Positions 1 to 47,183 of a DNA stretch of 47,183 nucleotides are shown here, in pieces. The stretch is from Deltaproteobacteria bacterium (lineage in GTDB: Bacteria; JAUYMQ01): the NCBI GenBank assembly GCA_030698575.1, contig JAUYMQ010000648.1:1-47183 (forward strand), in the 5' to 3' direction. Made by a program: the position numbers and the translations under genes. Each line of letters opens with the position of its first letter. Within the stretch, counting starts at the first letter, position 1. The notes beneath the pieces were generated by a model that did not search any database, was not told the DNA's origin, and was given only the letters and a program-made list of their open reading frames with translations.

Positions 1-141
1 CGATGAGCGCCCGGAGGCCTTCGGCTCGTGAATCGAGCGCGGCCTGTTGCTCCCCGCCACCCCGGGTCAGCCGCTCGGTTTTTCGCTCGGCCTGTCGCAC
101 ACGGTCGCCCGCGGCATGCGCGTTGGCGCGAGCGCGGTCGA
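1..141. repeat. Exact 141-bp terminal overlap with 47043..47183 (circular closure of the contig)
   Basis: Bases 1-141 (cgatgagcgcccggaggcc...gcgagcgcggtcga) recur identically at 47043-47183. The block lies inside a minus-strand CDS that closes in frame across the junction. Confidence 0.95.
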
Positions 142-1663
142 TCTGGGCGGACCTGATGCTCCGTGCCTTCTCCGCCCCTTGCTGTGCAGCCTCGCACAGC
201 GCAATGGTTTCGCGCGCAGCCACACCGACTTTCCTGGTCCGCTCCAGGTCCTGCTCGATCCGGGCTACAAGGCGCGCCGCCGCCGCGAAATCCTCCTCCA
301 TATCCTCGAGCACGCCGTGCGTGGTCTGGCCGCAGGTGGGGCAGATCCCCGACTCTAGCGCCGCAGCCTGCTGTTGTTGCACCCGCTGGTCCGCTTTGGC
401 GGCCGCCAGCTCCCCGGTGAGCCCGCGATATTCGGCGCCCGACTCGGCATGTACCGCACGCGCCGCTTCGAGCTCCCGCAACTTCTCCGGCGAAACCATC
501 GGCTCCGGCCCGGCCTCGATGGCTACGATTTCGGCGTTGGCCTGCGCGAGCTCTTGCCGGGCCGCCGCCAGCTCCCTGGCCGCCGCCGCTGCTGCTTCCC
601 CGCCCGACTGCTGGGCGAGCCGCTGCATCTCAGCCTCGAGGTTGCCGACTTCGGCGCGACGGGCCTCCAGGCGTTCTTTGCCCCGGCGCTCCTCCTCGGT
701 TGCAGCGGCGTAGGCCCGCCTGACATCGTCCAGGCGTCTCTGCGCCTCGGCGACCGCGCCCTCGGCCGCCCGAACCCGCTCCGCGCGGGTGCGCTCCCAG
801 CGCCGGATGTCCTCACGGCCGCGGTCCAGCTCGGCGCGCACCGCGGCGACGGTCTCGGACGCCCGATAAGCAGCCTGCTGCGCCGCCTCGGCTTCCTGCC
901 GCAGTCCGGCAATCGTAGTCGTGTCGGGCGCGTCCGGAGTCGGGGCCTCGAGGACCGGGTTGGTGGCGAGCACGGCGCTGCGTGCGGCCTTCTGGCGCTC
1001 CTTGCTGGTGATGCCGAGCACCAGCAGCACGTCCCGCACGTCGCCCTCGCTGCCGCCGGCGAGGCCGAGCTCGGAGAAGCGCGCCCGGAGCGCCGGCAAG
1101 TCGAGCGCTAGCTCATCGACCGAGGTCTGCTTGGCCCGGCTGAGGGCGCCGAGCGCCACCTCGTTGAGCAGCCGCTTTGGAGTCCACTCGGACACGCCGC
1201 CGCACAGGCGCAGTATCATCTTCTCGAGCTGGTCCGGCGCCATCGCCCGCATGGCCTCGAGGTCGAGCAGCATCGGCCCGACGTGAGGCGCGCCGTAGCG
1301 ATCGACGAGGGCCTGGCGCACGATGCTGTTTTTTCTCGCGTCGCACCCGCTGAGCTTCACGTTGCGCCGGCCGCTGTCGCCGTCGGCGGCAAACTCGAAG
1401 CTGGCCTGAGCGCCTCCACTGTCGTGCACCGTCACGCCCCACCGTCCGGTAGTGCCGGTCCAGTCGAGGCACGGGCCGGTGGCCACGACGCCCTCGTTGT
1501 CGGTCATCGCGCCGGGCACCTGCTGCGTCGTCGCGAGCAGGATCGCCTGGGCGATCGAGGTCTTCCCGGTGCCGTTCAAACCGCTGATGATGCCCGCCGC
1601 CGGCAGGTCCAGCGTGAGGACGTGCCCGCGGAAGCCAGCGAGCTCGACTTGGGTGAATCGCAT
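1..1663 (-). CDS. Rad50/SbcC-like SMC-family ATPase, N-terminal head plus coiled coil. It continues across the circular junction into 46261..47042, giving 2445 nt and 814 aa in total.
   Basis: My own reverse translation from ATG at 1663 gives MRFTQVELAGFRGHVLTLDLPAAGIISGLNGTGKTSIAQAILLATTQQ (Walker A GLNGTGKTS). A long Ala/Glu/Arg coiled coil follows, with a CPTCGQ CxxC hook-like motif encoded at about 329-343. The ORF track does not list it because the window edge truncates it. The start overlaps the upstream stop (TGATG). Confidence 0.85.
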   Translation of the reverse strand, partial: MRFTQVELAGFRGHVLTLDLPAAGIISGLNGTGKTSIAQAILLATTQQVPGAMTDNEGVVATGPCLDWTGTTGRWGVTVHDSGGAQASFEFAADGDSGRRNVKLSGCDARKNSIVRQALVDRYGAPHVGPMLLDLEAMRAMAPDQLEKMILRLCGGVSEWTPKRLLNEVALGALSRAKQTSVDELALDLPALRARFSELGLAGGSEGDVRDVLLVLGITSKERQKAARSAVLATNPVLEAPTPDAPDTTTIAGLRQEAEAAQQAAYRASETVAAVRAELDRGREDIRRWERTRAERVRAAEGAVAEAQRRLDDVRRAYAAATEEERRGKERLEARRAEVGNLEAEMQRLAQQSGGEAAAAAARELAAARQELAQANAEIVAIEAGPEPMVSPEKLRELEAARAVHAESGAEYRGLTGELAAAKADQRVQQQQAAALESGICPTCGQTTHGVLEDMEEDFAAAARLVARIEQDLERTRKVGVAARETIALCEAAQQGAEKARSIRSAQIDRARANAHAAGDRVRQAERKTERLTRGGGEQQAALDSRAEGLRALI

Positions 1664-1986
1664 CACGCCACCTCCATGGGCACGACCGTGGGCACGACGT
1701 CGCCCAGACGTCTGGCGTTGTTGTACGATCCCACGACCACGGCGCCTCCTAACCGTGGATCGTACGTAGCGATCCACTCAGCTAGGCAGTAGCGGGTTAT
1801 CAGCGCTCCGTACACCCAGATCGGCGCGCGGCCAGATAGGATCACGCCCCTGTCTGGAGGGACCTCGCCGTGGCGAGTGCCGATGCTTGGTAGGGCGAAC
1901 ATGGCCAAGTCGGCCGGCACGATCGGCCCCTCGGTGTCGATTTCCACGAGGGTGTACTTCGGTCCCTCCTGAATGGAGTACTTCAT
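1663..1986 (-). CDS. Csx3/Crn3-like protein (candidate cyclic-oligoadenylate binding protein or ring nuclease), 107 aa
   Basis: Internal ATG at 1986 of track ORF 1663..2316, preceded by GGAGGTGGGGGC. Sequence MKYSIQEGPKYTLVEIDTEGPIVP...VILSGRAPIWVYGALITRYCLAEWIATYDPRLGGAVVVGSYNNARRLGDVV. The SGRxPIW and YDPRLGxAVVV motifs and the length match my recollection of A. fulgidus Csx3. ATGA and TGATG overlaps join it to both neighbours. Confidence 0.6.
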   Translation of the reverse strand: MKYSIQEGPKYTLVEIDTEGPIVPADLAMFALPSIGTRHGEVPPDRGVILSGRAPIWVYGALITRYCLAEWIATYDPRLGGAVVVGSYNNARRLGDVVPTVVPMEVA

Positions 1987-2300
1987 GCCCCCACCTCCAT
2001 CGGTCGAGCGGTGCGGCCGCTGGCGAGCAGTGCCGTCTCGATCACGCCCATGATTGGCCCCTCGATGGGGGCCAGACGGCGCAAATCGGCGAGCCGCCCG
2101 ACGAAGGCCACCCGCCGGCCGGAGACCGAACGGGCGCACAAGCGAACCATGGTCCACTCGGTCGGGGCCTCGACCAGCACGGCCGCTGCCAGGCATCCGA
2201 ATGCCACCCTCCGGTCGCTGGTGTAGTCGGCTGGTGCCCCGCACAGGGGGCACGTAGTGGGGCGGTGGGGTTTGTGGGCCTCGATGTGTACCTCTTCCAT
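1983..2300 (-). CDS. Zinc-ribbon (CPxC) protein, 105 aa, paralogous to 2313..2537
   Basis: ATG at 2300 sits 5 nt after GGAGG. Sequence MEEVHIEAHKPHRPTTCPLCGAPADYTSDRRVAFGCLAAAVLVEAPTEWTMVRLC... The stop overlaps the next start (ATGA). Confidence 0.65.
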   Translation of the reverse strand: MEEVHIEAHKPHRPTTCPLCGAPADYTSDRRVAFGCLAAAVLVEAPTEWTMVRLCARSVSGRRVAFVGRLADLRRLAPIEGPIMGVIETALLASGRTARPMEVGA

Positions 2301-2312
2301 GATTACCTCCAA

Positions 2313-2537
2313 TCACCAGATCCAGACTATTTGCGAGCTCCGCGCCAGTAGATCGCGGAGTTTATCGATTTCCGCGCGCTGCTCGCGCACGACCTCGCTG
2401 GCGTGCCGGCACTGCGTGGTTTCTAGCCACGATCCTCCCACCAACACAGCTACTCGACCGCACCGGTAGCCCACTACCGTCACTGTGCTGTCGAGAATTT
2501 CCGCCTCACAGATCGGGCACTTATCCAGCGCATGCAC
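2313..2537 (-). CDS. Small zinc-ribbon (CPxC) protein, 74 aa, first gene of the leftward operon
   Basis: GTG start at 2537. Sequence MHALDKCPICEAEILDSTVTVVGYRCGRVAVLVGGSWLETTQC... followed by a short coiled-coil tail. Confidence 0.6.
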   Translation of the reverse strand: MHALDKCPICEAEILDSTVTVVGYRCGRVAVLVGGSWLETTQCRHASEVVREQRAEIDKLRDLLARSSQIVWIW

Positions 2538-2558
2538 GTTCGTTCACCATTGCTCACT

Positions 2559-2575
2559 TGTGCAGCGGCTGCACA
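2559..2575. promoter_or_regulatory. 17-bp palindrome TGTGCAGCGGCTGCACA upstream of the leftward operon
   Basis: 8+1+8 perfect inverted repeat located 22-38 nt upstream of the GTG at 2537. It could be an operator or a 5'-UTR hairpin. Confidence 0.4.
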
Positions 2576-2822
2576 TCACCTACGCTCCCACCTGCCCGCT
2601 GCCCCGCAACTGCACGCCCTGCCGCGCCGTATCTCCCGCGCGCCGTAGCGAGCGGTACTGGGGTCCACGCTCCGCCACTCGCGGGGCCGGGCACGGGGCG
2701 CTGAGCCGGGCCGTGTGCTCCCTGCATGGGATCGCCCGGGGCGCCCCGCGCCGGCCTGGGCCCGCTGCGGGGGGTGCGTGGGGGGCTGGTTGTCAGGGAG
2801 CAACCGTTCAACGCCCCTATTG

Positions 2823-2873
2823 TTCCGCAACACGAAACATCCTGTCAACAGAAATGTTTCGCAGGGCGGAACA
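2823..2873. promoter_or_regulatory. Composite inverted repeat GTTCCGC-n5-GAAACAT-n13-ATGTTTC-n5-GCGGAAC (candidate operator)
   Basis: Symmetric about position 2848 in the divergent intergenic region between 2537 (-) and 2889 (+). The outer half-sites are identical to the palindrome at 5943-5959. Confidence 0.5.
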
Positions 2874-2888
2874 TGGCTGGAGGATCTT

Positions 2889-3278
2889 ATGGGCTGTCGA
2901 AAGGCCTATCAGACAGCAGGGCGCCCGGGGACCTTCGTGGAACGACGTGGCGATCAGGATGTATTTGAAGTGCGATCTGGGCCGAGGGTGTACCTGGGGT
3001 CGGTCGATGAACGGACCGTGAAGGTTGGCGTCGGCGATGTTGTCCTCTTCTCGCCCGATGCCGATGCAGACCGCCTCGCCGATGGTGTGCTGGTAGTCGT
3101 CAGCCGCCGCATGCCCCATACAGGCACGCGACAGATCCTAGTAGTAGAGGGCCGCGCCCTCCCCGGCGGCACCTGGCAGTACCTCCCCTGCGCGGAAGGC
3201 TTTGCCCCGCTCCTGAGCACGGACCCCGCCGTCGAGCTCGTCGGCGTCGTCGTCGAGGTGCGGAGGGCGTTCCGTTGA
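2889..3278 (+). CDS. Stand-alone S24 (LexA/UmuD C-terminal)-like domain protein, 129 aa, no HTH
   Basis: ATG at 2889 sits 5 nt after GGAGGA. The layout ...YLGSVDERTVKVGVGDVVLFSPDADADRLADGVLVVV...VELVGVVVEVRRAFR parallels UmuD ...GDSMIDGGISDGDLLIVD...GDIVIA...VFGVVIHVVKAMR. Confidence 0.5.
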   Translation: MGCRKAYQTAGRPGTFVERRGDQDVFEVRSGPRVYLGSVDERTVKVGVGDVVLFSPDADADRLADGVLVVVSRRMPHTGTRQILVVEGRALPGGTWQYLPCAEGFAPLLSTDPAVELVGVVVEVRRAFR

Positions 3279-3409
3279 CGAGGGCTGAGGATGACTGGCG
3301 TCTAGCGGGCGATAGCAGGTTGCGTAGGTATTAAGGAAGCACTGGCCGGTGTTGCCCGCTTGTCCCCGAAGCCCGCCGATGATACAAGCCCGACCGAGGC
3401 AGGAGGAAA

Positions 3410-3892
3410 ATGCCAGTGACCGTTCCAATTCAACTCAACACGTGGAGCCAGAAGGCCGCGGGTGATCTGGTCATCTTCAATGTAGGTTACGAGAAGCGGA
3501 GCCTTCACCAACTTTGTGCCACATTGGTTGCCGCCGGGGTCGAAGTTCTGCTCGACGTGCGCGAACGGCCATGGAGCATGCGCCCGGAGTTTCGACGAGA
3601 GCGACTCCGCAAAGAGCTCGATGCCTCGGGCATTGGCTACGTGCATTGCAAGGCTGCCGGGAACCCGTATCGGCCAAAGCCGGGTGAGGTGAAGTCGTTC
3701 GACGATTGCATGAGGGATTACGAGCGCCATATCCGCGCATCTCCTGATGTTGTCGAGGAAATGTCCGGGCTTCTACGTGGTCGGCGCGCAGCGGTTTTTT
3801 GCTACGAGGCTCGCCGTGATCGGTGCCATCGCAGCGTGCTCCTTGACGCCATCGAGCGCATCGCTGGCCCTTTGACCGTCGTCGACCTATAA
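3410..3892 (+). CDS. DUF488 family protein, 160 aa
   Basis: GGAGGAAAATG ribosome-binding site. The motifs VLLDVRERPWSMRPEFRRERLRKELDASGIGYVH and AVFCYEARRDRCHRSVL match the DUF488 pattern DVR..P.S...F...L...GI.Y.H ... C.E.....CHR. Confidence 0.7.
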   Translation: MPVTVPIQLNTWSQKAAGDLVIFNVGYEKRSLHQLCATLVAAGVEVLLDVRERPWSMRPEFRRERLRKELDASGIGYVHCKAAGNPYRPKPGEVKSFDDCMRDYERHIRASPDVVEEMSGLLRGRRAAVFCYEARRDRCHRSVLLDAIERIAGPLTVVDL

Positions 3893-4708
3893 CCCGAACA
3901 TCGTCATCTGGCCGACCTTAGGCACCTTGAGCGAGTCCAATAGCATGAAGTTCGTGAGGTGGGTGCGTGATGTTCCCACGAAGAAGAAGATGTCGTATCG
4001 GGCCGTGTCGAGCTCGCGACGCATCAAGTCAATGACCTTGCCATTCAAGTTCGCGTCCCTGGCGAACTTCAGCTTCCGGTAGAGCTCGTTGAGGCCCCAG
4101 TTGTTGAGGCGCATGTCGTGTCCATTGCATCTGTTGTCATCGCAACGCCATGGAACGTGAAAGCCCATCTCCGGAAAGGCAATAGGCTTCATTTGGCCAA
4201 ACATGGCACCCTGAGCCAACAGTTCGCGTTCGATCGCTTCCCATTCGGCGCGCTCGGACTCGGGCCTGCGCTTGAGGTAGATCTTATCGAGGTTGATCGC
4301 CTTCGGCCTGACGATTGCGAGGGAGCGTTTTGGAAGCTTTCCTTTAGGACGTTCGGCTGTCATGGACTCGATGGAGTCAGCAATGCCTGGTGAACGCTCA
4401 ACATAATTTCGCCGTTCTTCGGGATCCTTAATTACCGGGCCGAGCTCGATCGAGTCGGGATGGATCCGGATGCTCTCGCTGCGTGGATCCTCAGAATGCG
4501 GCGCTGCGTCAACCGTGATCCACTGCCACGCCTTAAACCGCTTGCCTTCGTCGAGATACCGCTTTGGAACCGGGTGCAACCGCACAATTTCCTTGGTGTC
4601 CTCGCGAAGCGCTCCGGTACACGCGACTTCTCGGTACTTTCTTGAGTACCGCGGGTAGGTCGTCCCCAGCACGAGAAGGCGCGATCGGGTCCACATCTTC
4701 GGGTGCAT
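3887..4708 (-). CDS. Hypothetical protein, 273 aa, no family recognised (Cys/His cluster WRCDDNRCNGHD)
   Basis: Clean ORF with AGGAA before the ATG. The composition is protein-like and lies in the A/T-richer island. Its 3' end overlaps the DUF488 gene by 6 nt (convergent). Confidence 0.7.
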   Translation of the reverse strand: MHPKMWTRSRLLVLGTTYPRYSRKYREVACTGALREDTKEIVRLHPVPKRYLDEGKRFKAWQWITVDAAPHSEDPRSESIRIHPDSIELGPVIKDPEERRNYVERSPGIADSIESMTAERPKGKLPKRSLAIVRPKAINLDKIYLKRRPESERAEWEAIERELLAQGAMFGQMKPIAFPEMGFHVPWRCDDNRCNGHDMRLNNWGLNELYRKLKFARDANLNGKVIDLMRRELDTARYDIFFFVGTSRTHLTNFMLLDSLKVPKVGQMTMFGL

Positions 4709-4765
4709 TTCCTAGTCCCATTGCTAGTTGTTGATTGGCCATGTTGACATTCACGCGCGCGGGAC

Positions 4766-4781
4766 GCCGCGAGCACGCGGC
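4766..4781 (-). terminator. GC hairpin GCCGCG-agca-CGCGGC between the SHOCT gene and the 273-aa gene
   Basis: 6-bp perfect stem with a 4-nt loop, 28 nt downstream of the stop at 4809. No U-tract follows, so terminator function is uncertain. Confidence 0.25.
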
Positions 4782-4808
4782 ACCAACTTCGGCCTCCTCC
4801 TTGTGACG

Positions 4809-5132
4809 TCATATCTCCCCCAGCACCGCCTCCCGCCGCGCGCGCCACTCGGCGTCCGTGATGAGGCCGGAGGCTCGAATTTCGTCGAGCTCCTGAAGAC
4901 GGTCCGCCGCACCTCGCCGGGGTGCTATCAATGCGCCTGATGTGGCGATCGCCTCACGAGACGCATTCCGCTTTGCCCGACCGATGAGGTCCGCTCCAAT
5001 AAAGCAGATGATGGCAACCACGACTTGGAGCCATGGGATGATTGCGACCTTGAACATGGCATAGGTGTATAGGGCGCTCACCCCTGCCCACCCAAGAGTG
5101 ATGGCGCCGATGATGGTCAGGACGTAGTTCAT
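4809..5132 (-). CDS. Small membrane protein with a C-terminal SHOCT-like domain, 107 aa
   Basis: Two hydrophobic helices (NYVLTIIGAITLGWAGVSALY and IIPWLQVVVAIICFIGADLI), then ADRLQELDEIRASGLITDAEWRARREAVLGEI. ATGA overlap with the upstream gene. Confidence 0.6.
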   Translation of the reverse strand: MNYVLTIIGAITLGWAGVSALYTYAMFKVAIIPWLQVVVAIICFIGADLIGRAKRNASREAIATSGALIAPRRGAADRLQELDEIRASGLITDAEWRARREAVLGEI

Positions 5133-5533
5133 GGGATCAATCCTATGCTATCGAAGGCGTTCGCATGAGCAGGCATCTTAAAGATGCATTCGTACAAGCC
5201 ACGCCGCGCGTCGGAATTCTTGATGGCCAACGTGACATAGTCAGGGTTTTCCGGAGGGTTGATATCCCAACCTTTGCTTTTGAGAAGTTCGTCCACCGAA
5301 ATTCCAGACCCAGCCATAGCACGTCGACAAGACACCATGTCCCATCCCTTTTCGCCCAGCTCCGTCAGGTCATTGTTGAGGTCGAAGTCCTCAATCGCGA
5401 CGACAGAGTACGACCATCCAGATGCGTCTGGACCCGTTTCCAGCCACGCGTGAATGACCAACGTTTTTAATAGCTCCCAAGTCACAGCGGCCAGCAAAAG
5501 AGCAATTATGACATAACCTTGCATCTTCGACAC
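5129..5533 (-). CDS. Membrane-anchored protein with a DUF4177-like domain, about 134 aa
   Basis: GTG at 5533 sits 6 nt after GGGAGG (the track starts at TTG 5539). N-terminal TM segment YVIIALLLAAVTW. WSYSVVAIEDFDLNNDLTELGEKGWDMVSC resembles the DUF4177 pattern W.Y....LN.LG..GW..V. Confidence 0.5.
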   Translation of the reverse strand: MSKMQGYVIIALLLAAVTWELLKTLVIHAWLETGPDASGWSYSVVAIEDFDLNNDLTELGEKGWDMVSCRRAMAGSGISVDELLKSKGWDINPPENPDYVTLAIKNSDARRGLYECIFKMPAHANAFDSIGLIP

Positions 5534-5535
5534 GT

Positions 5536-5913
5536 TCAACCTCCCGTTTTGTTGTGTCGACGTTGCACGACCTTGATGTGGTCCAATGCCTCGCGACGAG
5601 CATCCGGGTTGAGCCCTTCGAGGATCGTGATGGCCTCCAACGTTTCAGCATCAAGCGTCGCCTCTGGCGGATGGTGGTAGCCGAACAATTCGTACGTTGG
5701 GCATTGGAGCGCATCCGCGAGCACGTCGATGGTCTGGTGCGTCCATCCGATGTTCGAGATCTCCATTCGCGCGATGGTTGATCGGTGCATACCGGCTCGT
5801 TCAGCAAGTTGTTCCTGCGTCAACCCTCGTCGTTTCCTTGCCTCTGCCAGGCGTAGCCGCATCAACAGAGTGTCGCACATGCCGGAGCATTGCTCGATAG
5901 CGCGGCGCGGCAC
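5536..5913 (-). CDS. XRE-family HTH repressor (CI-like), 125 aa, no peptidase domain
   Basis: GTG at 5913 sits 5 nt after GAGG. MRLRLAEARKRRGLTQEQLAERAGMHRSTIARMEIS is a classic HTH_3 motif. Divergent from a Cro-like gene with a palindromic operator between them. Confidence 0.8.
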   Translation of the reverse strand: MPRRAIEQCSGMCDTLLMRLRLAEARKRRGLTQEQLAERAGMHRSTIARMEISNIGWTHQTIDVLADALQCPTYELFGYHHPPEATLDAETLEAITILEGLNPDARREALDHIKVVQRRHNKTGG

Positions 5914-5933
5914 CTTTACCTCATGGTTCTGGC

Positions 5934-5962
5934 TTGACTAACGTTCCGCGTTGCGGAACAAT
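5934..5962 (+). promoter_or_regulatory. Sigma70-like promoter TTGACT-17-AACAAT, with the palindromic operator GTTCCGCgttGCGGAAC (5943-5959) in its spacer
   Basis: The -35 is at 5934-5939 and the -10 at 5957-5962, with a 17-nt spacer. The ATG of the Cro-like gene at 5969 lies 7 nt after the -10, implying a leaderless or near-leaderless transcript. Confidence 0.5.
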
Positions 5963-5968
5963 GTCTGC

Positions 5969-6382
5969 ATGAAGCTTGCTGCGTACAAGAGACAGCACCG
6001 GTTGACCTACGAGAGGCTCGCGAAGCTGCTGGCGATGACGAAGACATCCGCCTGGCGCTACTGCCAAGGCGAGGTGCCCTCGGCAGCCGCCGCCAACCGC
6101 ATCAGTAGGGCGACGAACGGCGAGGTAACGGTAGAGGAGCTCCTCTACCCCACCGGCGTCTCGCCCGGCGCCCGCATGACCCCTCGCGATCCTATGCCCG
6201 AGCTCGAGGACGACGAGCAGCTCGAGGACGACGCCGCCGACAACCCCGCCGCCCCGGGCACCAACCCCTGCGGCCACCCGAGCACCTTGGTGCGCGGTGG
6301 CGTGACGAACTACTGCTCGGGCTGCGAGAGCGACGCCCGGGAGATGGACGCCAGCGGCGGTGCCGACGCTGCGGCGGCTTAG
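5969..6382 (+). CDS. Cro/YdaS-like HTH regulator with an acidic/Cys C-terminal extension, 137 aa
   Basis: MKLAAYKRQHRLTYERLAKLLAMTKTSAWRYCQGEVPSAAAANRISRATNGEVTVEELLYP resembles Cro/YdaS-type HTH proteins. Divergent from the XRE repressor. Confidence 0.65.
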   Translation: MKLAAYKRQHRLTYERLAKLLAMTKTSAWRYCQGEVPSAAAANRISRATNGEVTVEELLYPTGVSPGARMTPRDPMPELEDDEQLEDDAADNPAAPGTNPCGHPSTLVRGGVTNYCSGCESDAREMDASGGADAAAA

Positions 6383-6465
6383 GGCGTGGCGCGGGTGTGG
6401 GATGTGCTGCGGCCGGCCGACGCGCAGGCGAAGGCCACCGCGCAAGCGGCGTAGGAGGTGCGGCG

Positions 6466-6639
6466 ATGCGAGCCCTCGTGAGCTCGACAGTGGCATGGGG
6501 TGCAGTGGCGGTCCTCGAGGTTGCGGTGGTGGTGCTCCGTCGCGCCCGCATGCTCGGGAGCCCCTCCATATCTATTGATGCGTCACAGCATGCCGGCGCC
6601 GCCGGGCTGGCGCACGCAAAGGCGAGGGTGCCGCGGTGA
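6466..6639 (+). CDS. Small hydrophobic protein, 57 aa
   Basis: Internal ATG of track ORF 6397..6639, preceded by AGGAGGTG at 6-nt spacing. Sequence MRALVSSTVAWGAVAVLEVAVVVLRRARML... The stop overlaps the next GTG start (GTGA). Confidence 0.45.
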   Translation: MRALVSSTVAWGAVAVLEVAVVVLRRARMLGSPSISIDASQHAGAAGLAHAKARVPR

Positions 6640-7136
6640 GGAACTCGCACAGGACCCCCAGAGCAGCCCGCGTCGCGTTCTCGCGGGCTGCCGCTGCCGT
6701 GGGCTATCAGGACATCGCCGACCTGTTCGGCTGCGACCGGTCGACGGTCAGTCGCTGGTGCTCCGGCGACCTCCCCCTTTACCTCGACACGGCGGGCGCG
6801 GTTGCGCGCCATCTGCAAGGGGTGGAGTGGAGCGAGGAGGTGCGCTCGATCGGCCGCGGGCTCGCCCAGGCGATCGCCGAGGAGGCCGGCGCCACCCTGA
6901 CGGGGCCAGTCCGGCTGGACGCCGACGCGCTGTCGCGGACGGTCTCGCAGACGGCCACCGCGGTGCTCGAGCGCGCCGGCGTGCTGGTGCGGGCCGCGGT
7001 GGACGCGGAGGCCGACGGCGTGGTGACGCCGGACGAGCTGCGCACGCTGATCCGCCTAATGGCCGAGCACGTGGACTGCTGCCGCGGCCGGCTCGCGGTC
7101 CTCGAGGAGCGGCTGCGGGCCGCGTCGAGCGCATGA
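6636..7136 (+). CDS. HTH DNA-binding regulator (possibly CII/CP76-like), 166 aa
   Basis: GYQDIADLFGCDRSTVSRWCSGD is an HTH motif. The C-terminal helical region contains DGVVTPDELRTLIRLMAEH. Confidence 0.55.
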   Translation: MRNSHRTPRAARVAFSRAAAAVGYQDIADLFGCDRSTVSRWCSGDLPLYLDTAGAVARHLQGVEWSEEVRSIGRGLAQAIAEEAGATLTGPVRLDADALSRTVSQTATAVLERAGVLVRAAVDAEADGVVTPDELRTLIRLMAEHVDCCRGRLAVLEERLRAASSA

Positions 7137-7407
7137 GTTGCACGCCCGGGCGGTCCGCCGTCCGGGGTCCCACTCCCGCGGGGGCCAAGGTCGCGGGACG
7201 AGTCGCATGGGGCGACGGGAAACGTGTGAGGCAGTCGAGCACGCCGTCGCCAGGGCCGCGCCTGCATGTGGCCCGCCTCACCCGTCGAGCGCCGGACGGG
7301 CATCGACTGCAGGCGCCGGGCAGGTCGCCCGACATCCAGACCCCGGCCGGTGGGACGCCGGCCCCAGACGCGGCCCCGAACCCTTCGCGGGTAATGCGAG
7401 GGCCTAG

Positions 7408-7476
7408 CGGTGTCACGGGAGCGCCCCCCACCGCGACGTGTGCAAGAGCGCCGGGCCGGCTGAGAGGCCGGCCACC
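7408..7476 (+). repeat. Copy 1 of a ~70-nt repeat carrying the hairpin GGCCGGC-tgagag-GCCGGCC
   Basis: cggtgtcacgggagcgcccc...gccgggccggctgagaggccggccacc aligns by eye to 7616-7685 with only a few mismatches and one 1-nt indel. Confidence 0.8.
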
Positions 7477-7501
7477 GTCTACATGACGGCGCGACCGCAT
7501 C

Positions 7502-7553
7502 TGGAGGTTGCGCCGTTGAGCGCCGCGTGGAGGTTGCGCCGTTGAGCGCCGCG
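7502..7553 (+). repeat. Perfect tandem duplication, 2 x 26 bp (tggaggttgcgccgttgagcgccgcg)
   Basis: Units 7502-7527 and 7528-7553 are identical. They lie between the two 70-nt repeat copies in a non-coding tract. Confidence 0.9.
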
Positions 7554-7615
7554 GGCAGGCCGCGGGCCGAGGGCAGGCGAAGGCCCCACGCTCTCTGAGA
7601 GGGGAGCCCAGACCA

Positions 7616-7685
7616 CGGTGTCGCGGGAGCGCCCCCGCCGCCGTGACGTGTGCATGACGCCGGGCCGGCTGAGAGGCCGGCCACC
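7616..7685 (+). repeat. Copy 2 of the ~70-nt hairpin-containing repeat
   Basis: cggtgtcgcgggagcgcccccgccgccgtgacgtgtgcatgacgccgggccggctgagaggccggccacc. Confidence 0.8.
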
Positions 7686-8005
7686 AGATCCCCTGCGGGG
7701 GTGGGCAATGACGGGCCGCCGAAAGCCGCCGATGTGGCGATCCACGGTTCTGAGCCCTAACCCGGCCGACCTGCGGCGGCGGAACCGCGGGAGCCGCTCA
7801 CGGGCGAAACTGTGAGCCCACCCCAGGGACACGGGGACGGCGAGGGGGCACGCCGCGACGCCGGCGACGGCGCGGAACCGGGACATAGTGGGTGCCCGGG
7901 CCCCTTTTCGCAGCGGCCTGCCGCTGGTGCTACAGGGCTGCCGGGCACCCTTGATGCACGAAAGACACGGTAGACAGGACGCGCCGCGGCGCAAGGGAGA
8001 GCCCG

Positions 8006-8663: not shown

Positions 8664-9170
8664 ATGCGCGAGCTCGCCGACGTCACGCTCCGCCTGCCCA
8701 TCGCGCCCGCGGCCAAGGGCAGGCCCAAGGCGCGAGTGCTGCAGCTTGGGGCGCGGACCATCGCTCAGATGTACACCCCGGCGACCACCCGCGCCTTCGA
8801 GGCGACCATCGCCGACATGGCCGCTGCGCGCCTGGAAGGCCGCATCTTGGAGGGCCCGCTCCGCGTCGACATCCTCGCGGTGCTCCAGCGCCCGCAAGGG
8901 CTCCTCCGCAAGCGGGACCCGGAGGGCATCACCTGGGCCCCGAAGCGTCCGGACCGCGACAACCTGGAGAAGGCGGTGCTCGACGGGCTTTCTGCTTGCT
9001 TCCGGGACGACGCTCAGGTCGTCGCCGGCGAGACCATCAAGGTCTACGCCGAGAAGACTGGCTGCCCCCGCGTGGTCGTGCGCATCCGTCAGCTCGGAGA
9101 GCAAGACCTGCTCGCCGCCGCCAACCCCGAGGCGCTCGCCGCGTCACTCGGGCTGCTCGTGGAGGGGTGA
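8664..9170 (+). CDS. rusA: RusA-family Holliday junction resolvase, 168 aa
   Basis: Internal ATG at 8664 follows GGGGAGGG. PIAPAAKGRPKARV...MYTPATTRAFE...KRPDRDNLEKAVLDGLSACFRDDAQVV matches the RusA motifs (P..K.R., DxDN..K...D.....DD.QV). Confidence 0.8.
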   Translation: MRELADVTLRLPIAPAAKGRPKARVLQLGARTIAQMYTPATTRAFEATIADMAAARLEGRILEGPLRVDILAVLQRPQGLLRKRDPEGITWAPKRPDRDNLEKAVLDGLSACFRDDAQVVAGETIKVYAEKTGCPRVVVRIRQLGEQDLLAAANPEALAASLGLLVEG

Positions 9171-9171
9171 C

Positions 9172-10497
9172 GTGGCGGAGATCACCTACACCGTAGCTCC
9201 CGCTCGGGAGTCCTCCACCCGCAAGTTCGCCAAGCTCAGCCGGGATGCCCGGCTTGCCATCAAGTGCCTGCGGGACCAGGTGGATCGATGGGGCTGCGTC
9301 ACGGCGGACCCCTGGGAGATCCAGGGGATGTGCCTCCGAGACTATTCGGAGGAGGAGATAGGGGCGTGTCTGAGTGAGGCTGCGGGGGCGGGGCTCATCG
9401 TGTTGTATGAGGCCGGTGGAGCACCGTGGGCGTGGTTCCCCGACCACGACAGCATGCACGACGGCTCGTATCTGCGCACCAAGCGCGGCCGCCCAACGCT
9501 CCCGCTGCCCCCCTGTCACCCGACGCTCGCGCAGGAGACGAGTACTCCGGAGCAGGTCCAGAGCACTCCGGAGCAGGTCCAGAGTACTCCGGAGCAGGTC
9601 CAGAGCACTCCGGAGCAGGTCCAGAGCACTCCGGAGCAGGTCCAGAGTACTCCGGAGCAGGTCCAGAGTACTCCGGAGCAGGTCCAGAGCACTCCGGAGC
9701 AGGTCCAGAGTACTCCGGAGAACTCCTCACGCGCGCGACGCGCGGACCTCGACCTCGACCTTGACCTCGACCTCGACCTTGACCGCGACCAGACAGGGGC
9801 GGAGGCGGCGCAGGGATCTAGCTACGCGCGCACGCGCGAGGCCGGGCCGCCGCCGCCGACTGCCGACGGTTATGCCGGTTCTGCGTCTCGCTCGTCGGAG
9901 CCGTCATTGCCCGAGCCCGAGCCCGAGCCCAAGCTCGCCGCGGCTCCGGTGTCTGCCGGCCGGGGCAACCCCGGGGCTACCCCGGGCTCTACCCCGGGCT
10001 CTACCCCGGGGCAACCCCGGGGTGACCCTGCGCTGGACTGCCTGTGGCCCAGCTTCCTCGCCGGGGCGGAGCTGCTCCAACGCGGGGGGCACCCGTGCGA
10101 GATGGGGTCGGTGGCCCGGGAGGCATGGGAACGCACGGTTCGGGCCTTCCCGCAGCTCGACCACGAGACCGCCATCGCCGAGTGGGTCGCGCACTGGTCA
10201 GGACCGAGGGCGAAGAAGCGCTACGGCCCGGTGCTGGATGCGGTGGCGAGCTATCACCAGGCCTGCGACCTTGCGCTGAGGAAGCAACTCGAGCAGGAGG
10301 CACGGCAACGTGAACGGGACAAGCATGTGGGCGCGCAAGCCGGAGACGCGAAGTCTGGCGGACATATTGGCGTCGCTGCCAACAAGCACTACGACGAGGC
10401 AGCGTTCGCCCGAGAGCGAGATCGACGCAAACAAAACGTGGGCGTGTCCGGCGCACGGAAACGTGTGCCGACTCCTGCGGAAACCGGAGGGATATGA
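9172..10497 (+). CDS. Replication initiator/organiser-like protein with a repeat-rich central linker, 441 aa
   Basis: GTG at 9172 sits 5 nt after GGAGGGG. Its position is upstream of a DnaC-like loader. The N- and C-terminal parts look globular, and the centre encodes (STPEQVQ)x8, (DL)n, (PE)n and (TPGS)n. Confidence 0.5.
   Translation: MAEITYTVAPARESSTRKFAKLSRDARLAIKCLRDQVDRWGCVTADPWEIQGMCLRDYSEEEIGACLSEAAGAGLIVLYEAGGAPWAWFPDHDSMHDGSYLRTKRGRPTLPLPPCHPTLAQETSTPEQVQSTPEQVQSTPEQVQSTPEQVQSTPEQVQSTPEQVQSTPEQVQSTPEQVQSTPENSSRARRADLDLDLDLDLDLDRDQTGAEAAQGSSYARTREAGPPPPTADGYAGSASRSSEPSLPEPEPEPKLAAAPVSAGRGNPGATPGSTPGSTPGQPRGDPALDCLWPSFLAGAELLQRGGHPCEMGSVAREAWERTVRAFPQLDHETAIAEWVAHWSGPRAKKRYGPVLDAVASYHQACDLALRKQLEQEARQRERDKHVGAQAGDAKSGGHIGVAANKHYDEAAFARERDRRKQNVGVSGARKRVPTPAETGGI
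9541..9720 (+). repeat. Tandem 21-bp repeats ag(t/c)actccggagcaggtccag, 8 full units plus a 12-nt partial unit (iteron-like, candidate ori)
   Basis: Units start at 9541, 9562, 9583, 9604, 9625, 9646, 9667, 9688 and 9709. Each contains the 8-bp palindrome CTCCGGAG. They are in frame within the initiator-like CDS. Confidence 0.9.
9745..9792 (+). repeat. Hexamer tandem repeat (gacctc/gacctt)n
   Basis: gacctcgacctcgaccttgacctcgacctcgaccttgaccgcgacc encodes DLDLDLDLDLDLDRD. Confidence 0.85.
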
Positions 10498-43533: not shown

Positions 43534-44198
43534 GCTCCACCTCCCGACTGCGGCGGCTGCGACGCACGCCACCGCTGGTAGTTTTCCTCCTGCGCTGCTG
43601 CCTGTCGGTGCAACCAGGCATCCGCCTCGTGGGCGTCGACGGGGAGATGCTGACATCCTGGATGCGTCCGCAGATGCCAGAGCAGCGCGCCAGTCATCAG
43701 GCAGTCCGCACTCGCCCGGTGGGCCTGGCCGGGACAGCGGATGCCGAGCCGAGCGCAGACGCTGGTGAGCCGGTGGCGGCCCGGGCCCCGCCAGTACCGC
43801 CCCACCGCGTCGAGCCGCACGATGACCAGTGGGTCGATGACTGGCTTGCCCGCGGTGGCCTCGTCCCAGGCAACCCCAAGGCTGCGACTCAGGATTGGCT
43901 CGTCGTAGCAGAGAAAGTTGTAGCCGACGAGGACCTCCGCCTCGTCCACGTGGTCGAGGAACCGCTCGGCGACGTCCTCGATGCGCGACTCCCGCGCCAC
44001 CATGGCGTCGGTGATGCCGTGCACGGCGGAGGCCTGCTCGGGGATCGGGATGCCAGGATTGATGAGCCTCCCCATTCTTGCGCCGGGGCGCCCCCTGTCG
44101 AACGGGACGGCGGCCAGCTCGACTATGGCCGCTGTGGTGGTATCGATGCCGGTGGTCTCGGTGTCGATGACGAGCCAGCGCGCCTCCCAGATGTTCAC
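43530..44198 (-). CDS. DnaQ-like DEDDh 3'-5' exonuclease, 222 aa
   Basis: GTG at 44198 follows GGAGGGG. ExoI is LVIDTETTG, ExoII is GYNFLCYDEPIL and ExoIII is HRASADC. Confidence 0.8.
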   Translation of the reverse strand: MNIWEARWLVIDTETTGIDTTTAAIVELAAVPFDRGRPGARMGRLINPGIPIPEQASAVHGITDAMVARESRIEDVAERFLDHVDEAEVLVGYNFLCYDEPILSRSLGVAWDEATAGKPVIDPLVIVRLDAVGRYWRGPGRHRLTSVCARLGIRCPGQAHRASADCLMTGALLWHLRTHPGCQHLPVDAHEADAWLHRQAAAQEENYQRWRASQPPQSGGGA

Positions 44199-44208
44199 CG
44201 TGCCCCTC

Positions 44209-45258
44209 CTATGCCCACGGGTCGAAGTCGCCGCCGGCCGCCGGCCCCTGCGCGGGGGGCGCCGTCGTCGCAGTCGTTGTTGGTGCAGGGGTTGCCGTCG
44301 TCGCACGCGTCGCGCTCATGGCAGTGAAGGGGTCGTCATCGCCTTCCAGCGGCTTACGCTGTACGGACGCGGGGTTGCGGTCGGTCGGGAAGAGCCGCGC
44401 GGTGCGCTCGCCGTTTTTTTCCATCTGGTGCGCGGGGGGCGCCGTCGTCGCACGCTCGGATTGTGCAGGCGTCGCCGTATCATCTGACTCGGCCTCGTCG
44501 GCCTCGTTGTCGATCCAATCGTGGGCCTCGACCAGCTTGGTCGTGGGGAGATCGCCGAGGCGGACGAGTGTGAAGTCCTGCAGGAGGTTTTGCTCGGCGT
44601 CGTCGTCGATCTCCCTCAGGCGCTGGCGGAGAGCGGCGACGTCCGTGTGTGAGATAGTCTCTGGCTGCCGTCGCCGGCGGCTGGTGGGGCGCTCGGGTTC
44701 ACGGTTTGTCTTCTGTGAGCGCCGTGGAGCGGGCTCGTCGTCTTCATCCTGCGGGAAGTCCTCGCTACCGATGTGGCTCAGATCCAGTATGTTTGTGGCC
44801 CGGATCTCAGCCATCTCACTATCGGTGATCTCCTCCTCCGGCGTGATCGAGTAGGTGGTCTTCGGGTCGCCCTTCTGCCCCACCCGCTCGATTTGATACC
44901 ACCACAGCTCGCGACCGAGCTTCTTGGTGGCTCGGCAGACTAGCTTGAACCAGCCAATTCCACCCTCCACAACCTTCATCCGACATTCGTCCCGGACGTA
45001 GAAGCACACCATGACCTTGACGCTCTTCCGGCTGCCCTTGCGGCACGCGCGGCAGTCGGACCCGCCGCAGTCGACGTAGGTCTGCCCGGTCCAGTGTACC
45101 TCCCGGATCCGCGGGTCACCCACGAACGCCCCCACCACCGTATCCTCGTCATCCTCCAGGCGGACGTAGATCGATGCCCTCTTGGCGATGTCCTTCGCGG
45201 TCGCCAATGCGGCGTCCCACGCGTCCGCACCTCGCGCCCGTCCGTTGCCTCTTGCCAT
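44209..45258 (-). CDS. Putative ssDNA-binding/annealing protein with a Zn motif and a long acidic/TAP-rich tail, 349 aa
   Basis: ATG at 45258 sits 7 nt after GGAGG (alternative GTG at 45261). It contains CGGSDCRAC, lies next to the YqaJ exonuclease, and ends in GGDFDPWA. Confidence 0.35.
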   Translation of the reverse strand: MARGNGRARGADAWDAALATAKDIAKRASIYVRLEDDEDTVVGAFVGDPRIREVHWTGQTYVDCGGSDCRACRKGSRKSVKVMVCFYVRDECRMKVVEGGIGWFKLVCRATKKLGRELWWYQIERVGQKGDPKTTYSITPEEEITDSEMAEIRATNILDLSHIGSEDFPQDEDDEPAPRRSQKTNREPERPTSRRRRQPETISHTDVAALRQRLREIDDDAEQNLLQDFTLVRLGDLPTTKLVEAHDWIDNEADEAESDDTATPAQSERATTAPPAHQMEKNGERTARLFPTDRNPASVQRKPLEGDDDPFTAMSATRATTATPAPTTTATTAPPAQGPAAGGDFDPWA

Positions 45259-46250
45259 CACTTAACCTCCGAAACCGTAAAACGACGGTAGCTGGACGTC
45301 GCGCAGTACTCCGCCGCGAGGTCCGGTCGCTCCGCCCGCAGTCGTTTGATGTCGATCCGCTCGGACTGGACAGTCGTCCACCGCACCAGGTGGCTGCCGG
45401 CAGAGCCCTTCTCGTGCTCTCCGAGCATTGTTTTGATTTGATTTTCCACCGCGGTCCGCCGCCGCTCGAGTGCCTTCTGCTCGTCGCAGATGGACTCCCG
45501 CTCCGCGATGAGCGACAGCGCGTCCGCCGGCAGCCGCACGATGTCTGGGGTGGACTCGGCCCACAGCAGCGCCAGCGCTTCCGCGGTGCTCTCGGTGTCG
45601 TCCACCGGGGGCATCTCGCCCGACTGCACGTAGCCCCAGAACTCGCGTTCCTGCTGGAGCAGCCAGGCGATGGCGTCCTCGTCGCGGTTGACGATGCGCT
45701 CTTCATAGTGGTTGCCGCCGAGCAGGACGGGGACGTAGGCCCGCTGCACCATGGGCCCGAGCACCGCGAGGTAGTGGAGGGTCTGCCAGTAGTAGTCGGC
45801 CGGCACTCCACCCGCCCACTTGCGCTTCATGTACTCGCCGCCGGTCTTCACCTCGACGAGCACCGGCCGCCGGTTCTCGTCCAGTGCAATGCCGTCGAGG
45901 TTGGCGAGAGCCCACGGCACATCGGGGTGGCGGAGGGTGGCCCCGACGCGGTGGACGGTGAGCTCCGGGTGCGACTCGGCGAACTTCTGGAGCACCGTCG
46001 CCTCGTGGCGGTGCCCCCACTCCATGGGCTCAGTCTGCTCCCGAGGTGGGATCCGGTCGGTCTTGTCCGCCCAGAGGTAGACCCGCGAGCGGTAGTCGCT
46101 CTTGCCAACCGCGGCCGCGGCGTCGGATCCGCCGATGCCACCCTTGCGCAGCTCGAGCCATCGCTCGTGCGTCATGGCGTCGTGCCAGCCGATGATCCCC
46201 GCGTGCCCGACGCGCGTTGCAGTCCGGGGGATGGTCTGTATAGCGCCCAT
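45258..46250 (-). CDS. YqaJ-type (lambda Exo-like, PD-(D/E)XK) recombination exonuclease, 330 aa
   Basis: Internal ATG at 46250 follows GGGGGGTGG. ERWLELRKGGIGGSDAAAAVGKSDYRSRVYLW, EWGHRHE and LDGIALDE...VLVEVKT are YqaJ motifs. Confidence 0.8.
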   Translation of the reverse strand: MGAIQTIPRTATRVGHAGIIGWHDAMTHERWLELRKGGIGGSDAAAAVGKSDYRSRVYLWADKTDRIPPREQTEPMEWGHRHEATVLQKFAESHPELTVHRVGATLRHPDVPWALANLDGIALDENRRPVLVEVKTGGEYMKRKWAGGVPADYYWQTLHYLAVLGPMVQRAYVPVLLGGNHYEERIVNRDEDAIAWLLQQEREFWGYVQSGEMPPVDDTESTAEALALLWAESTPDIVRLPADALSLIAERESICDEQKALERRRTAVENQIKTMLGEHEKGSAGSHLVRWTTVQSERIDIKRLRAERPDLAAEYCATSSYRRFTVSEVK

Positions 46251-46260
46251 GCCACCCCCC

Positions 46261-47183
46261 CTACACCGCCAGCCGGCGCTGCTCGATGTCCACCACCACC
46301 GCGCCGGGGCCCCACCCTGTGGGGTCGACGGCGAACACGAGCACCTGGTCGAGGTGGCCCCCGTCCACGAGCCAGCGCGCCAGGCGCCAGAAAGTGGCTC
46401 GGTTCTCCGCGTCGAGGGCCTCACCACCGTCCAGCACCACCACCCGGCAGGGCGACTGCGCCAAACGGTGGAGCGTGGCACTCAACATGATCATCGCCAT
46501 CGCGAAGTGCCCCGCGCTGAGGCTGGACAGCGGAGCGAAACCGCGGACCGTCTCATAGCCGAGCCCGAAGCGGGCGCCGAAACGCGCCGTGAAGGTGCCG
46601 ATGTTGACGCCGTACTTCTTCGCGAGCTTGTCCATCGGTCGCGTGATCGGGGCCACGAGCCCCTCGAGCACCTCGCGCTCGAGGCCGTGGGCCGCCGCCG
46701 CCACGGACCTCCAGATATCCCCCCACGCCTGGGCACGCAGCCGCTTGCACTGCGCGTCTGCCTTGCGCTGCGCGTCCTCGTCCGCCAGCGCCCGCTGCGC
46801 CTGAGCGGAGTGGTAGGCCTCAGATGCCTCCTTCGCCGCGCGCTTGGCGTGCTCGCTCTGCTCCTCGGCTGCCAGCAGACGGCGTGCGACCTCCGCGGGC
46901 TCGGGCGGTCTGCCGGTGTCGTCGGCTGAGGTGGCGACGAGGGCGCGCTTCGCCGCCGCGAGCTGAGCATCCGCAGCCTCGAGCTGCTCGAGAGCCTCAC
47001 ACCGTCGGGTGGCTACCGCATCGAGCTGCTCGGCGAGCTCGGCGATGAGCGCCCGGAGGCCTTCGGCTCGTGAATCGAGCGCGGCCTGTTGCTCCCCGCC
47101 ACCCCGGGTCAGCCGCTCGGTTTTTCGCTCGGCCTGTCGCACACGGTCGCCCGCGGCATGCGCGTTGGCGCGAGCGCGGTCGA
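46261..47183 (-). CDS. Rad50/SbcC-like ATPase, C-terminal coiled coil plus head (same gene as 1..1663)
   Basis: Track ORF 46261..47142. It has the signature-like LSAGHFAMAMIMLSATL and the Walker B/D-loop VVVLDGGEALD. The frame stays open to the window end and continues at position 142 after removal of the 141-bp overlap. Confidence 0.85.
   Translation of the reverse strand, partial: DRARANAHAAGDRVRQAERKTERLTRGGGEQQAALDSRAEGLRALIAELAEQLDAVATRRCEALEQLEAADAQLAAAKRALVATSADDTGRPPEPAEVARRLLAAEEQSEHAKRAAKEASEAYHSAQAQRALADEDAQRKADAQCKRLRAQAWGDIWRSVAAAAHGLEREVLEGLVAPITRPMDKLAKKYGVNIGTFTARFGARFGLGYETVRGFAPLSSLSAGHFAMAMIMLSATLHRLAQSPCRVVVLDGGEALDAENRATFWRLARWLVDGGHLDQVLVFAVDPTGWGPGAVVVDIEQRRLAV
47043..47183. 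repeat. Second copy of the 141-bp terminal overlap
   Basis: Identical to bases 1-141. Confidence 0.95.

Follow-up and report, generated by a model that had tools for sequence, protein, structure and literature searches.

Immunity by type III CRISPR systems relies on signalling with cyclic oligoadenylates, and the described protein that is most useful for comparison here is the ring nuclease Crn3/Csx3 of Archaeoglobus fulgidus (AfCsx3, AF_1864; structures 3WZI, 6YUD and 6VJG). We report on a csx3/crn3-like gene in contig JAUYMQ010000648.1 of assembly GCA_030698575.1, a stretch of 47,183 nucleotides (nt) that is called the window in what follows. The contig is the complete genome of a lambda-like temperate tailed phage, and the gene is located as follows:

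1663..1986, minus strand: csx3/crn3-like gene, 107 amino acids

AfCsx3 sandwiches cyclic tetra-adenylate (cA4) between two dimers (PMC7371418). Most of the contacts to cA4 are made by the so-called D69 face, i.e. by I22, S44, G45, R46, I49 and R71, with D69 standing next to R71, and the next dimer contributes H57, H60 and H80 from its H60 face, which are described as absolutely conserved residues and of which H80 is hydrogen-bonded to the ribose 2'-OH of cA4 (PMC7371418). Catalysis needs Mn2+ or Co2+; the H60A and D69A variants are dead, H80A and R71A are strongly impaired and the activity of H57A is reduced (PMC7371418). The H60A variant binds cA4 in the crystal 6YUD without cleaving it, and its solution turns milky when cA4 is added, which the authors interpret as the formation of long cA4-bridged fibres; if H60A and D69A are mixed, activity is restored (PMC7371418).

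On the viral side, AcrIII-1, Csx20 and Csx16 were found when 28,114 genomes of cultured phages were surveyed, and Crn3 is not listed there (PMC12409355); Crn4b and the viral SAVED protein AcrIII-2 were added later as viral counter-measures. In the literature searched, the viral counter-measures that act on cA4 itself are all nucleases, i.e. AcrIII-1, AcrIII-2, Crn4b and Csx16/20. Sequestration of cA4 is known from a cellular protein, Csx15, a sponge that forms head-to-tail filaments and can neutralise type III immunity in vivo at high expression (PMC13148439).

The product of the gene in the window is a full-length Csx3/Crn3 homologue. The minus-strand open reading frame (ORF) 1663-1986 yields the 107-amino-acid protein MKYSIQEGPKYTLVEIDTEGPIVPADLAMFALPSIGTRHGEVPPDRGVILSGRAPIWVYGALITRYCLAEWIATYDPRLGGAVVVGSYNNARRLGDVVPTVVPMEVA, as quoted in the first-pass annotation of this DNA, plus a C-terminal tail PTVVPMEVA. 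The protein is matched by the Pfam family Cas_csx3 (PF09620) with 81.4 bits and an E value of 4e-23 (cut-off 21), by the NCBIfam equivalog TIGR02579 with 79.2 bits (cut-off 55.4) and by the PADLOC Csx3 models with about 80 bits. A phmmer search against the PDB sequences returned only the A. fulgidus Csx3 entries 6yud, 3wzi, 6vjg, 3wzg and 3wzh (E about 1e-15, residues 1-102). The AlphaFold2 (AF2) model, calculated with 50 homologues, has a mean predicted local distance difference test score (pLDDT) of 87.4 and a predicted template modelling score (pTM) of 0.81, and it shows the Csx3 fold, i.e. a STAS/CARF-like alpha-beta domain; in a Foldseek comparison with the PDB the 13 best matches were all AfCsx3 chains (template modelling scores 0.82/0.90, root-mean-square deviation 1.3 Å), followed by the cA4-binding protein Cat1. 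The whole-length likeness to AfCsx3 that the first-pass annotation had claimed is thus borne out, and since it spans residues 1-102 as well as the fold, it is not confined to two short motifs. The NCBI record of the same protein, MDP3940586.1, which belongs to a metagenome-assembled genome labelled "Deltaproteobacteria bacterium", had already been named Crn3/Csx3 ring nuclease by the NCBI pipeline.

The phage protein is like AfCsx3 in family, fold and size and in being a stand-alone single domain, and the published cA4 contacts of the D69 face, as well as D69 and R71, are all conserved. It differs by carrying T, C and Y in place of H57, H60 and H80, by an insertion of seven residues, and by not being located beside a type III CRISPR locus. 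The relevant codons are:

1828..1836, minus strand: S51-G52-R53 (S44-G45-R46 in AfCsx3), the cA4-contacting motif of the D69 face, conserved
1747..1761, minus strand: D76-P77-R78-L79-G80 (D69-P70-R71-L72-G73 in AfCsx3), catalytic/binding Asp and Arg conserved
1795..1797, minus strand: Thr64, codon ACC, in place of the family-conserved His57 (from DNA and alignment)
1786..1788, minus strand: Cys67, codon TGC, in place of the essential His60 (from DNA and alignment)
1723..1725, minus strand: Tyr88, codon TAC, in place of His80 (from DNA and alignment)
1855..1875, minus strand: seven-residue insertion R38-H39-G40-E41-V42-P43-P44 (from alignment gaps)

The conservation of the family was described by those columns of a 52-sequence alignment that are invariant or at least 90% conserved, 20 columns in all. 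Of these columns, 17 are conserved in the phage protein, and those that are missing are exactly H57, H60 and H80. If three of the 20 columns were lost at random, this very set would be affected 1 time in 1140, a figure that is meant as a rough post-hoc illustration and is no formal test. All seven residues of the D69 face are identical, i.e. I22, S51, G52, R53, I56, D76 and R78 correspond to I22, S44, G45, R46, I49, D69 and R71 of AfCsx3. The first-pass annotation had seen that the Asp of YDPRLG is kept (this is D76, the counterpart of D69) and that the position of H60 is taken by a Cys, now numbered Cys67, and both statements are correct; its suggestion of an altered catalytic site holds for H60 and was incomplete, as the replacements of H57 by T64 and of H80 by Y88 had been missed.

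Since the losses coincide with the His triad and the other 17 of the 20 columns are kept, the pattern points to a targeted loss rather than to decay. This bears on the suggestion that the protein has the Csx3 fold and no role in cA4 biology, i.e. that it is a relic, binds another ligand, or has a protein-protein role such as capping or co-assembling with a host Crn3. Such an origin would fit a singleton that has no close relatives and has lost the catalytic triad, and, as a mixture of AfCsx3 H60A and D69A regains activity, a His-less protein could co-assemble with a host Crn3. However, decay at random would not leave the binding face untouched, and the 17 conserved positions include every published cA4-contacting residue; moreover, the fold is predicted with confidence, the codons are adapted in composition to the phage genome, and csx3 has a strong ribosome-binding site. 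We consider a protein without a role in cA4 binding quite unlikely.

Our leading, if still tentative, reading is that the gene encodes a cA4-sequestering protein (a sponge) of the phage that acts against type III CRISPR, in other words a Csx3/Crn3 that has been disarmed as an enzyme. The first-pass annotation had offered "a binder or sponge rather than a nuclease", and with the intact D69 face, the missing His triad and the precedent of H60A this has become the best-supported mechanism, which we put forward as a proposal. The protein would be produced early, from the leftward operon of the temperate phage; it would dimerise as Csx3 does and bind cA4 on the conserved D69 face (I22, S51-G52-R53, I56, D76, R78). 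The H60 face of the next dimer normally contributes three histidines, i.e. a presumed Mn2+ site and a ribose contact, and would here present T64, C67 and Y88. A face altered in this way would be unable to complete the Mn-dependent active site, and cA4 would be sandwiched or held without being cut; the hydroxyl group of Tyr88 may still contact the ribose that is otherwise reached by His80. Sequestration would probably proceed via cA4-bridged head-to-tail oligomers, and the effectors that are activated by cA4 (Csx1, Csm6, Can and similar proteins) would stay off while the phage replicates. From the residues that are kept and replaced we infer cA4 binding, the absence of cleavage, oligomerisation and the anti-CRISPR role alike.

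The closest functional analogue of the proposed behaviour is AfCsx3 H60A (PMC7371418). As it binds cA4, does not cleave it and is inferred to form fibres, it provides an engineered precedent; it is a laboratory variant with a single substitution, whereas the phage protein is a natural variant in which three histidines are replaced. Csx15, a CARF-family protein and a very slow ring nuclease, holds cA4 between head-to-tail dimers in a sponge-like manner, as is proposed here, but belongs to another family, is cellular and CRISPR-associated, and is reported to be absent from phage genomes (PMC13148439). The phage proteins Acb2, Tad1 and Tad2 also sequester second messengers instead of degrading them; they have unrelated folds and do not originate from a host ring nuclease, and they act mainly on the signals of Thoeris and of the cyclic-oligonucleotide-based antiphage signalling system (CBASS), i.e. 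on cyclic di- and trinucleotides and glycocyclic ADP-ribose (gcADPR). AcrIII-1 (DUF1874/Crn2) and AcrIII-2 (viral SAVED) share the setting proposed for the phage Csx3, namely virus-encoded removal of cA4 directed against type III systems, and AcrIII-2 has a composite site between stacked subunits, as Csx3 does. The fold of AcrIII-1 is unrelated and the SAVED fold of AcrIII-2 only distantly related to that of the phage Csx3, and both are active multiple-turnover nucleases, whereas the catalytic residues of its family are missing from the phage Csx3. A target in CBASS, cyclic GMP-AMP (cGAMP) or Pycsar signalling was dropped from consideration: action against CBASS or other cyclic-nucleotide signalling had been put forward in the first reading of the sequence, nothing in the data points there, and the conserved binding face is the cA4 face.

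Csx3 is not restricted to this phage. Phage-borne Csx3 is real, and it is undescribed in the literature searched. A tblastn search for Csx3 in 50,697 GenBank phage records found none, and three plasmids carry an annotated crn3. No structure with the Csx3 fold was found in BFVD at E <= 1e-3, and PHROGs contains no family for the Csx3 protein nor for the two small Cys-containing proteins that are encoded upstream of it. In IMG/VR, 14 contigs encode Csx3 relatives, and together with the phage copy they show that Csx3 occurs in phages. At least 5 of the 14 contigs are clearly phage-like, with csx3 located among the early genes:

L001: csx3 near a primase and UvsX
L005: csx3 near DnaQ and RecT
L007: csx3 near Sak4, a Cas4-like exonuclease and a helicase
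L010: csx3 near an SbcCD-like gene
L011: csx3 near TerL

The position of csx3 among early replication and recombination genes fits an anti-defence role of viral Csx3 generally, and viral Crn3 ring nucleases of a so far undescribed family may exist in uncultured phages. A Nudix-Csx3 fusion that had been considered for the viral loci L004 and L008 is unsupported, as Pfam detects the Csx3 domain only.

The following points weigh against the sponge. No substitutions at the aligned histidines were found in the IMG/VR viral copies (two of the matches are too short to cover H80), which means that the usual viral solution appears to be an active enzyme. The White laboratory has argued that the cyclic oligoadenylate output of type III systems is so large that sponging "could be a fruitless approach"; it also states that phages had yielded no Csx15 (PMC13148439). 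The phage protein is a singleton that is known from one sample only; its best non-self match has an E value of 8.5e-20, and the identities among the matches listed are 31-56%. Finally, the catalytic D76 is retained, and H39 and E41 of the insertion, together with the nearby D45, are expected on the H60 face, so that a relocated metal site with residual nuclease activity is possible.

The last point leads to the main rival explanation, an active viral ring nuclease (an AcrIII-like Crn3) with re-wired chemistry, in which H39, E41 and D45 would act as metal or general-base ligands together with Cys67 and Tyr88, or in which D76 and R78 would bring about a metal-independent cleavage. Both D76 and R78 are catalytically important in AfCsx3 and both are kept. 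The insertion 38-44 is not seen in any homologue aligned and contains the sole histidine of the phage protein, H39; the strand terminating in the SGR motif comes after its loop, so judging from the topology of AfCsx3 the insertion should lie on the H60 face. A nuclease would also agree with the viral-contig copies of Csx3, which keep every aligned triad histidine and are presumably enzymes, and with the known viral counter-measures to type III signalling, AcrIII-1, AcrIII-2, Crn4b, Csx16 and Csx20, which are nucleases. On the other hand, all three family histidines are replaced, and Cys and Thr are poor ligands of Mn2+. The insertion is modelled at a lower pLDDT, and its expected placement comes from topology. 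In AfCsx3, H60A alone abolishes activity, and H57A and H80A reduce it (PMC7371418). On balance we regard a re-wired nuclease as unlikely.

If the sponge is real, its significance would lie in several directions. Among sponge-type anti-CRISPRs it would be the first aimed at the cA4 signal of type III systems and also the first with a ring nuclease as its origin. The stand-alone Csx3 proteins of uncultured phages would then represent an unrecognised AcrIII family that comes as an enzyme (triad intact) and as a sponge (triad gone). A functioning sponge would run counter to the present opinion that type III systems cannot usefully be opposed by sponging, would be a simple example of an enzyme turned into a sequestering anti-defence protein, and would provide a cA4-trapping reagent of 107 amino acids. 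Judged by its residues, the phage copy looks like a natural version of the well-studied mutant that binds but cannot cut. It is conceivable, though in our opinion short of probable, that phages captured the Csx3/Crn3 of their hosts and that this phage turned it, by loss of the His triad, into a polymerising, non-catalytic cA4 sponge.

The rarity of the residue pattern was assessed among the homologues. When 1.84 billion representative proteins were searched exhaustively with phmmer, 425 members of the family were retrieved at E <= 1e-3. The closest among the matches listed is 56% identical in a partial match and the others are 31-52% identical; on the basis of sequence comparison, the phage protein is an orphan branch of the family. 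All three histidines are present in 116 of the 135 alignable stand-alone single-domain homologues, H60 is missing from 12, and 8 lack the entire triad. Of these 8 His-less proteins, five, the phage protein included, keep the G/R/D/R residues of the D face. Contigs, all of them short, were available for five of the seven other His-less relatives, and no cas genes were found near them, only small hypothetical genes. Among 80 GTDB and 14 IMG/VR Csx3 loci none lacks all three histidines, and a few carry single substitutions at H57 or H80.

One locus with His-less relatives, L017 (positions 2472-3506, also seen as L018 and L019; GCA_036704145.1, DATNQG010000280.1), contains two divergently transcribed Csx3-domain genes that both lack the His triad, with the residues D/C/R and S/R/T at the AfCsx3 positions 57/60/80. 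The pair is surrounded by hypothetical genes and is about 7 kb from an AcrVA2-like gene. L017 holds the best His-less relative, and a search of its context in PHROGs was uninformative; the locus may be an anti-defence island of a mobile element with paired Csx3 variants. A different kind of variation is seen in many proteins of 380-550 amino acids (P0052-P0199 of the representative search), which carry two tandem Csx3 domains and keep the D-face and the H-face residues in separate domains, e.g. SGRHHDRP and then EGPQHDRH. This split suggests single-chain pseudo-dimers with a division of labour.

The assignment of the gene to a phage is based on the window itself. The first 141 nt are an exact copy of the last 141 nt (1-141 = 47043-47183), i.e. 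the genome is circular (or terminally redundant) with a length of 47,042 bp. It encodes a large terminase, a portal protein, a major head protein and a head-morphogenesis protein, as well as an integrase, a cII-like regulator, RusA and a DnaC/IstB-like loader. The first-pass statement that the gene is phage-encoded is confirmed by the terminase, portal, major head protein and integrase on the same circular contig. No cas genes and no CRISPR array were detected in the phage genome, in scans that covered part of the ORFs, and the type III CRISPR-Cas neighbourhood (csx1/csm6) that is usual for Csx3/Crn3 was not seen at the phage locus. The gene is virus-encoded and lies in an early/accessory region, as is characteristic of the AcrIII-type functional class. 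Bases 1-8000 gave no megablast match among the GenBank phages, and no relatives of the phage were found in IMG/VR with the ATPase and the YqaJ exonuclease or in the GTDB genomes with TerL. These searches thus yielded neither a sister phage with which the csx3 slot could be compared nor a clue to the host; a tRNA gene that might hint at an attachment site or a host was not found either.

The csx3 gene is part of a leftward early operon, downstream of a divergent regulatory region. Along the minus strand, a possible Cys-containing ORF of 74 amino acids is followed by a Cys-containing protein of 105 amino acids, csx3, an ATPase of 814 amino acids, a YqaJ/RecE-like exonuclease, a single-stranded DNA-binding (SSB)-like protein, a DnaQ-type exonuclease, two unknown proteins and the integrase. 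The features of this region that are used below are:

2819..2848, minus strand: TTGACA-18-AACAAT, a sigma-70-like promoter match located upstream of the leftward operon (a consensus match only)
2313..2537, minus strand: possible Cys-containing ORF, 74 amino acids
1983..2300, minus strand: Cys-containing protein, 105 amino acids, with CPLCG...C...C and an N-terminal HIEAHKPH; its stop overlaps the csx3 start
1992..1998, minus strand: Shine-Dalgarno sequence GGAGGTG, 5 nt before the csx3 ATG and within the 3' end of the upstream gene
1..1663, minus strand: N-terminal 554 codons of the ATPase, with GLNGTGKT as Walker A motif and, within the coiled coil, a zinc hook CPTC
46261..47042, minus strand: C-terminal part of the ATPase across the circular junction, with the LSAGH signature and the Walker-B region VVVLDGGEALD
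45258..46250, minus strand: YqaJ/RecE-like recombination exonuclease, next downstream of the ATPase (YqaJ 107 bits, phrog_434 311 bits)

In terms of expression, csx3 fits an intact, working gene: the ORF is intact, the Shine-Dalgarno sequence is strong and the codon composition is matched to the phage. The GC content at third codon positions (GC3) is 0.79, compared with 0.76-0.89 for other phage genes. A recent horizontal acquisition of csx3 was rejected, as this GC3 value is like that of the phage genes and unlike that of the neighbouring low-GC island described further below. We note that Csx3 and the upstream 105-amino-acid protein both terminate in ...PMEV(G)A (1663-1680 and 1983-2003, minus strand), and that the last codons of both contain the next gene's Shine-Dalgarno sequence, ATGGAGGTGG. 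The C-terminal tail of Csx3 is disordered in the AF2 model (pLDDT about 53), and in view of the embedded Shine-Dalgarno sequence it is probably translational coupling, not the function of the protein, that has shaped this tail.

The ATPase has its correct length of 814 amino acids only because the contig is circular (1663 to 1, then 47042 to 46261); the NCBI record splits it at the junction into the partial proteins MDP3940585.1 and MDP3940640.1. It matches the Pfam family AAA_23 and the SbcC-like phrog_77. These matches, together with the Walker A motif, the zinc hook and the LSAGH signature, identify it as a Rad50/SbcC-type protein that heads a recombination/replication block made up of the SbcC-like ATPase, the YqaJ/RecE exonuclease, the SSB-like protein and the DnaQ exonuclease. 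The search for homologues with the full-length ATPase returned only the query itself, probably because the low-complexity coiled coil dominated the candidates, and neither a search with the N-terminal head domain nor a phmmer search of the PDB gave a match. As side observations, the CPTC zinc hook lies at about 330-350 (minus strand), in the middle of the coiled coil, and in the Walker B region VVVLDGGEALD a Gly occupies the usual position of the catalytic Glu in ABC ATPases of this type.

The adjacency of csx3 to this ATPase had led the first-pass annotation to suggest a functional coupling, i.e. a Csx3-like sensor of a phage system that acts with the Rad50/SMC-like ATPase and the downstream nucleases. 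The overlaps on which this was based are real: reading the DNA confirms ATGA with the upstream gene and TGATG with the ATPase, so that the csx3 stop overlaps the ATPase start within one operon. Csx3-AAA fusions do exist in cyanobacteria, and the viral locus L010 has its SbcCD-like gene 3.4 kb from csx3. However, a GGAGGT(G) Shine-Dalgarno sequence is found 5 nt upstream of the start at all three genes checked, i.e. that of the 105-amino-acid protein (zn105), csx3 and the ATPase; overlaps and strong Shine-Dalgarno sequences are thus common to all checked operon starts, and the coupling is not specific to csx3. No homologue of the ATPase, of YqaJ, of the Zn-proteins or of any further neighbour in the phage genome was found near Csx3 in 100 other loci, and in 99 further loci examined no large ORF with an N-terminal Walker A motif was found at a distance of up to 2.5 kb from Csx3. 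With the pairing absent from these loci, and with the ATPase being part of a standard-looking recombination/replication block, the claim of functional coupling is unsupported, and we judge a joint sensor system highly improbable. Nor is the proposed likeness to the Csx3-AAA and AAA-Csx3 fusions supported. These proteins do link a Csx3 domain to an ATPase, and the phage protein matches their PADLOC models more weakly, by way of its Csx3 domain; but they are single polypeptides from CRISPR neighbourhoods with an ATPase of the AAA+ type, whereas the phage Csx3 is a separate single domain and its neighbour is an AAA_23, Rad50/SbcC-type ABC ATPase.

The upstream gene had been described as a zinc ribbon. 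It does encode a Cys-containing protein and is coupled to csx3, but all that is left of the zinc-ribbon assignment is a rubredoxin-like match that is weak and below threshold; the 105-amino-acid protein is not matched by any model of PHROG, NCBIfam or PADLOC, and the libraries searched contained no homologue of it. The protein starts with MEEVHIEAHKPH, i.e. it has three histidines in its first 12 residues, followed by CPLCG. An interaction of this protein with the His-less Csx3 would be pure speculation.

Further features of the phage genome are outside the immediate surroundings of csx3. A convergent gene pair, 3410-3892 on the plus strand and 3887-4708 on the minus strand, corresponds to the candidate defence system PDC-M19 in both of its components: PDC-M19A is matched by the DUF488 protein (E 1e-24), and PDC-M19B by a protein of 273 amino acids (E 8e-33) that also matches phrog_25907. 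The pair is inside an island of low GC content at about 3200-5900 (53-60% GC in comparison to 67-75% around it), which also carries a SHOCT membrane protein, a protein of 136 amino acids and a helix-turn-helix regulator. The island looks like prophage-borne defence cargo beside the immunity region.

In the rightward early region, an ORF of 583 amino acids (8746-10497) contains several repeats. A 21-nt tandem repeat with 8.6 copies and 96% identity (9540-9720, plus strand) codes for STPEQVQ repeats; after it come Asp-Leu repeats and a repeat of 11 nt (9745-9790 and 9960-10022). Finally, the same leftward operon that contains csx3 encodes, at 42574-43656 on the minus strand, a protein of 360 amino acids with several CxxC pairs and a C-terminal thumb domain of the DNA polymerase beta type (PF14791, E 7.5e-8).

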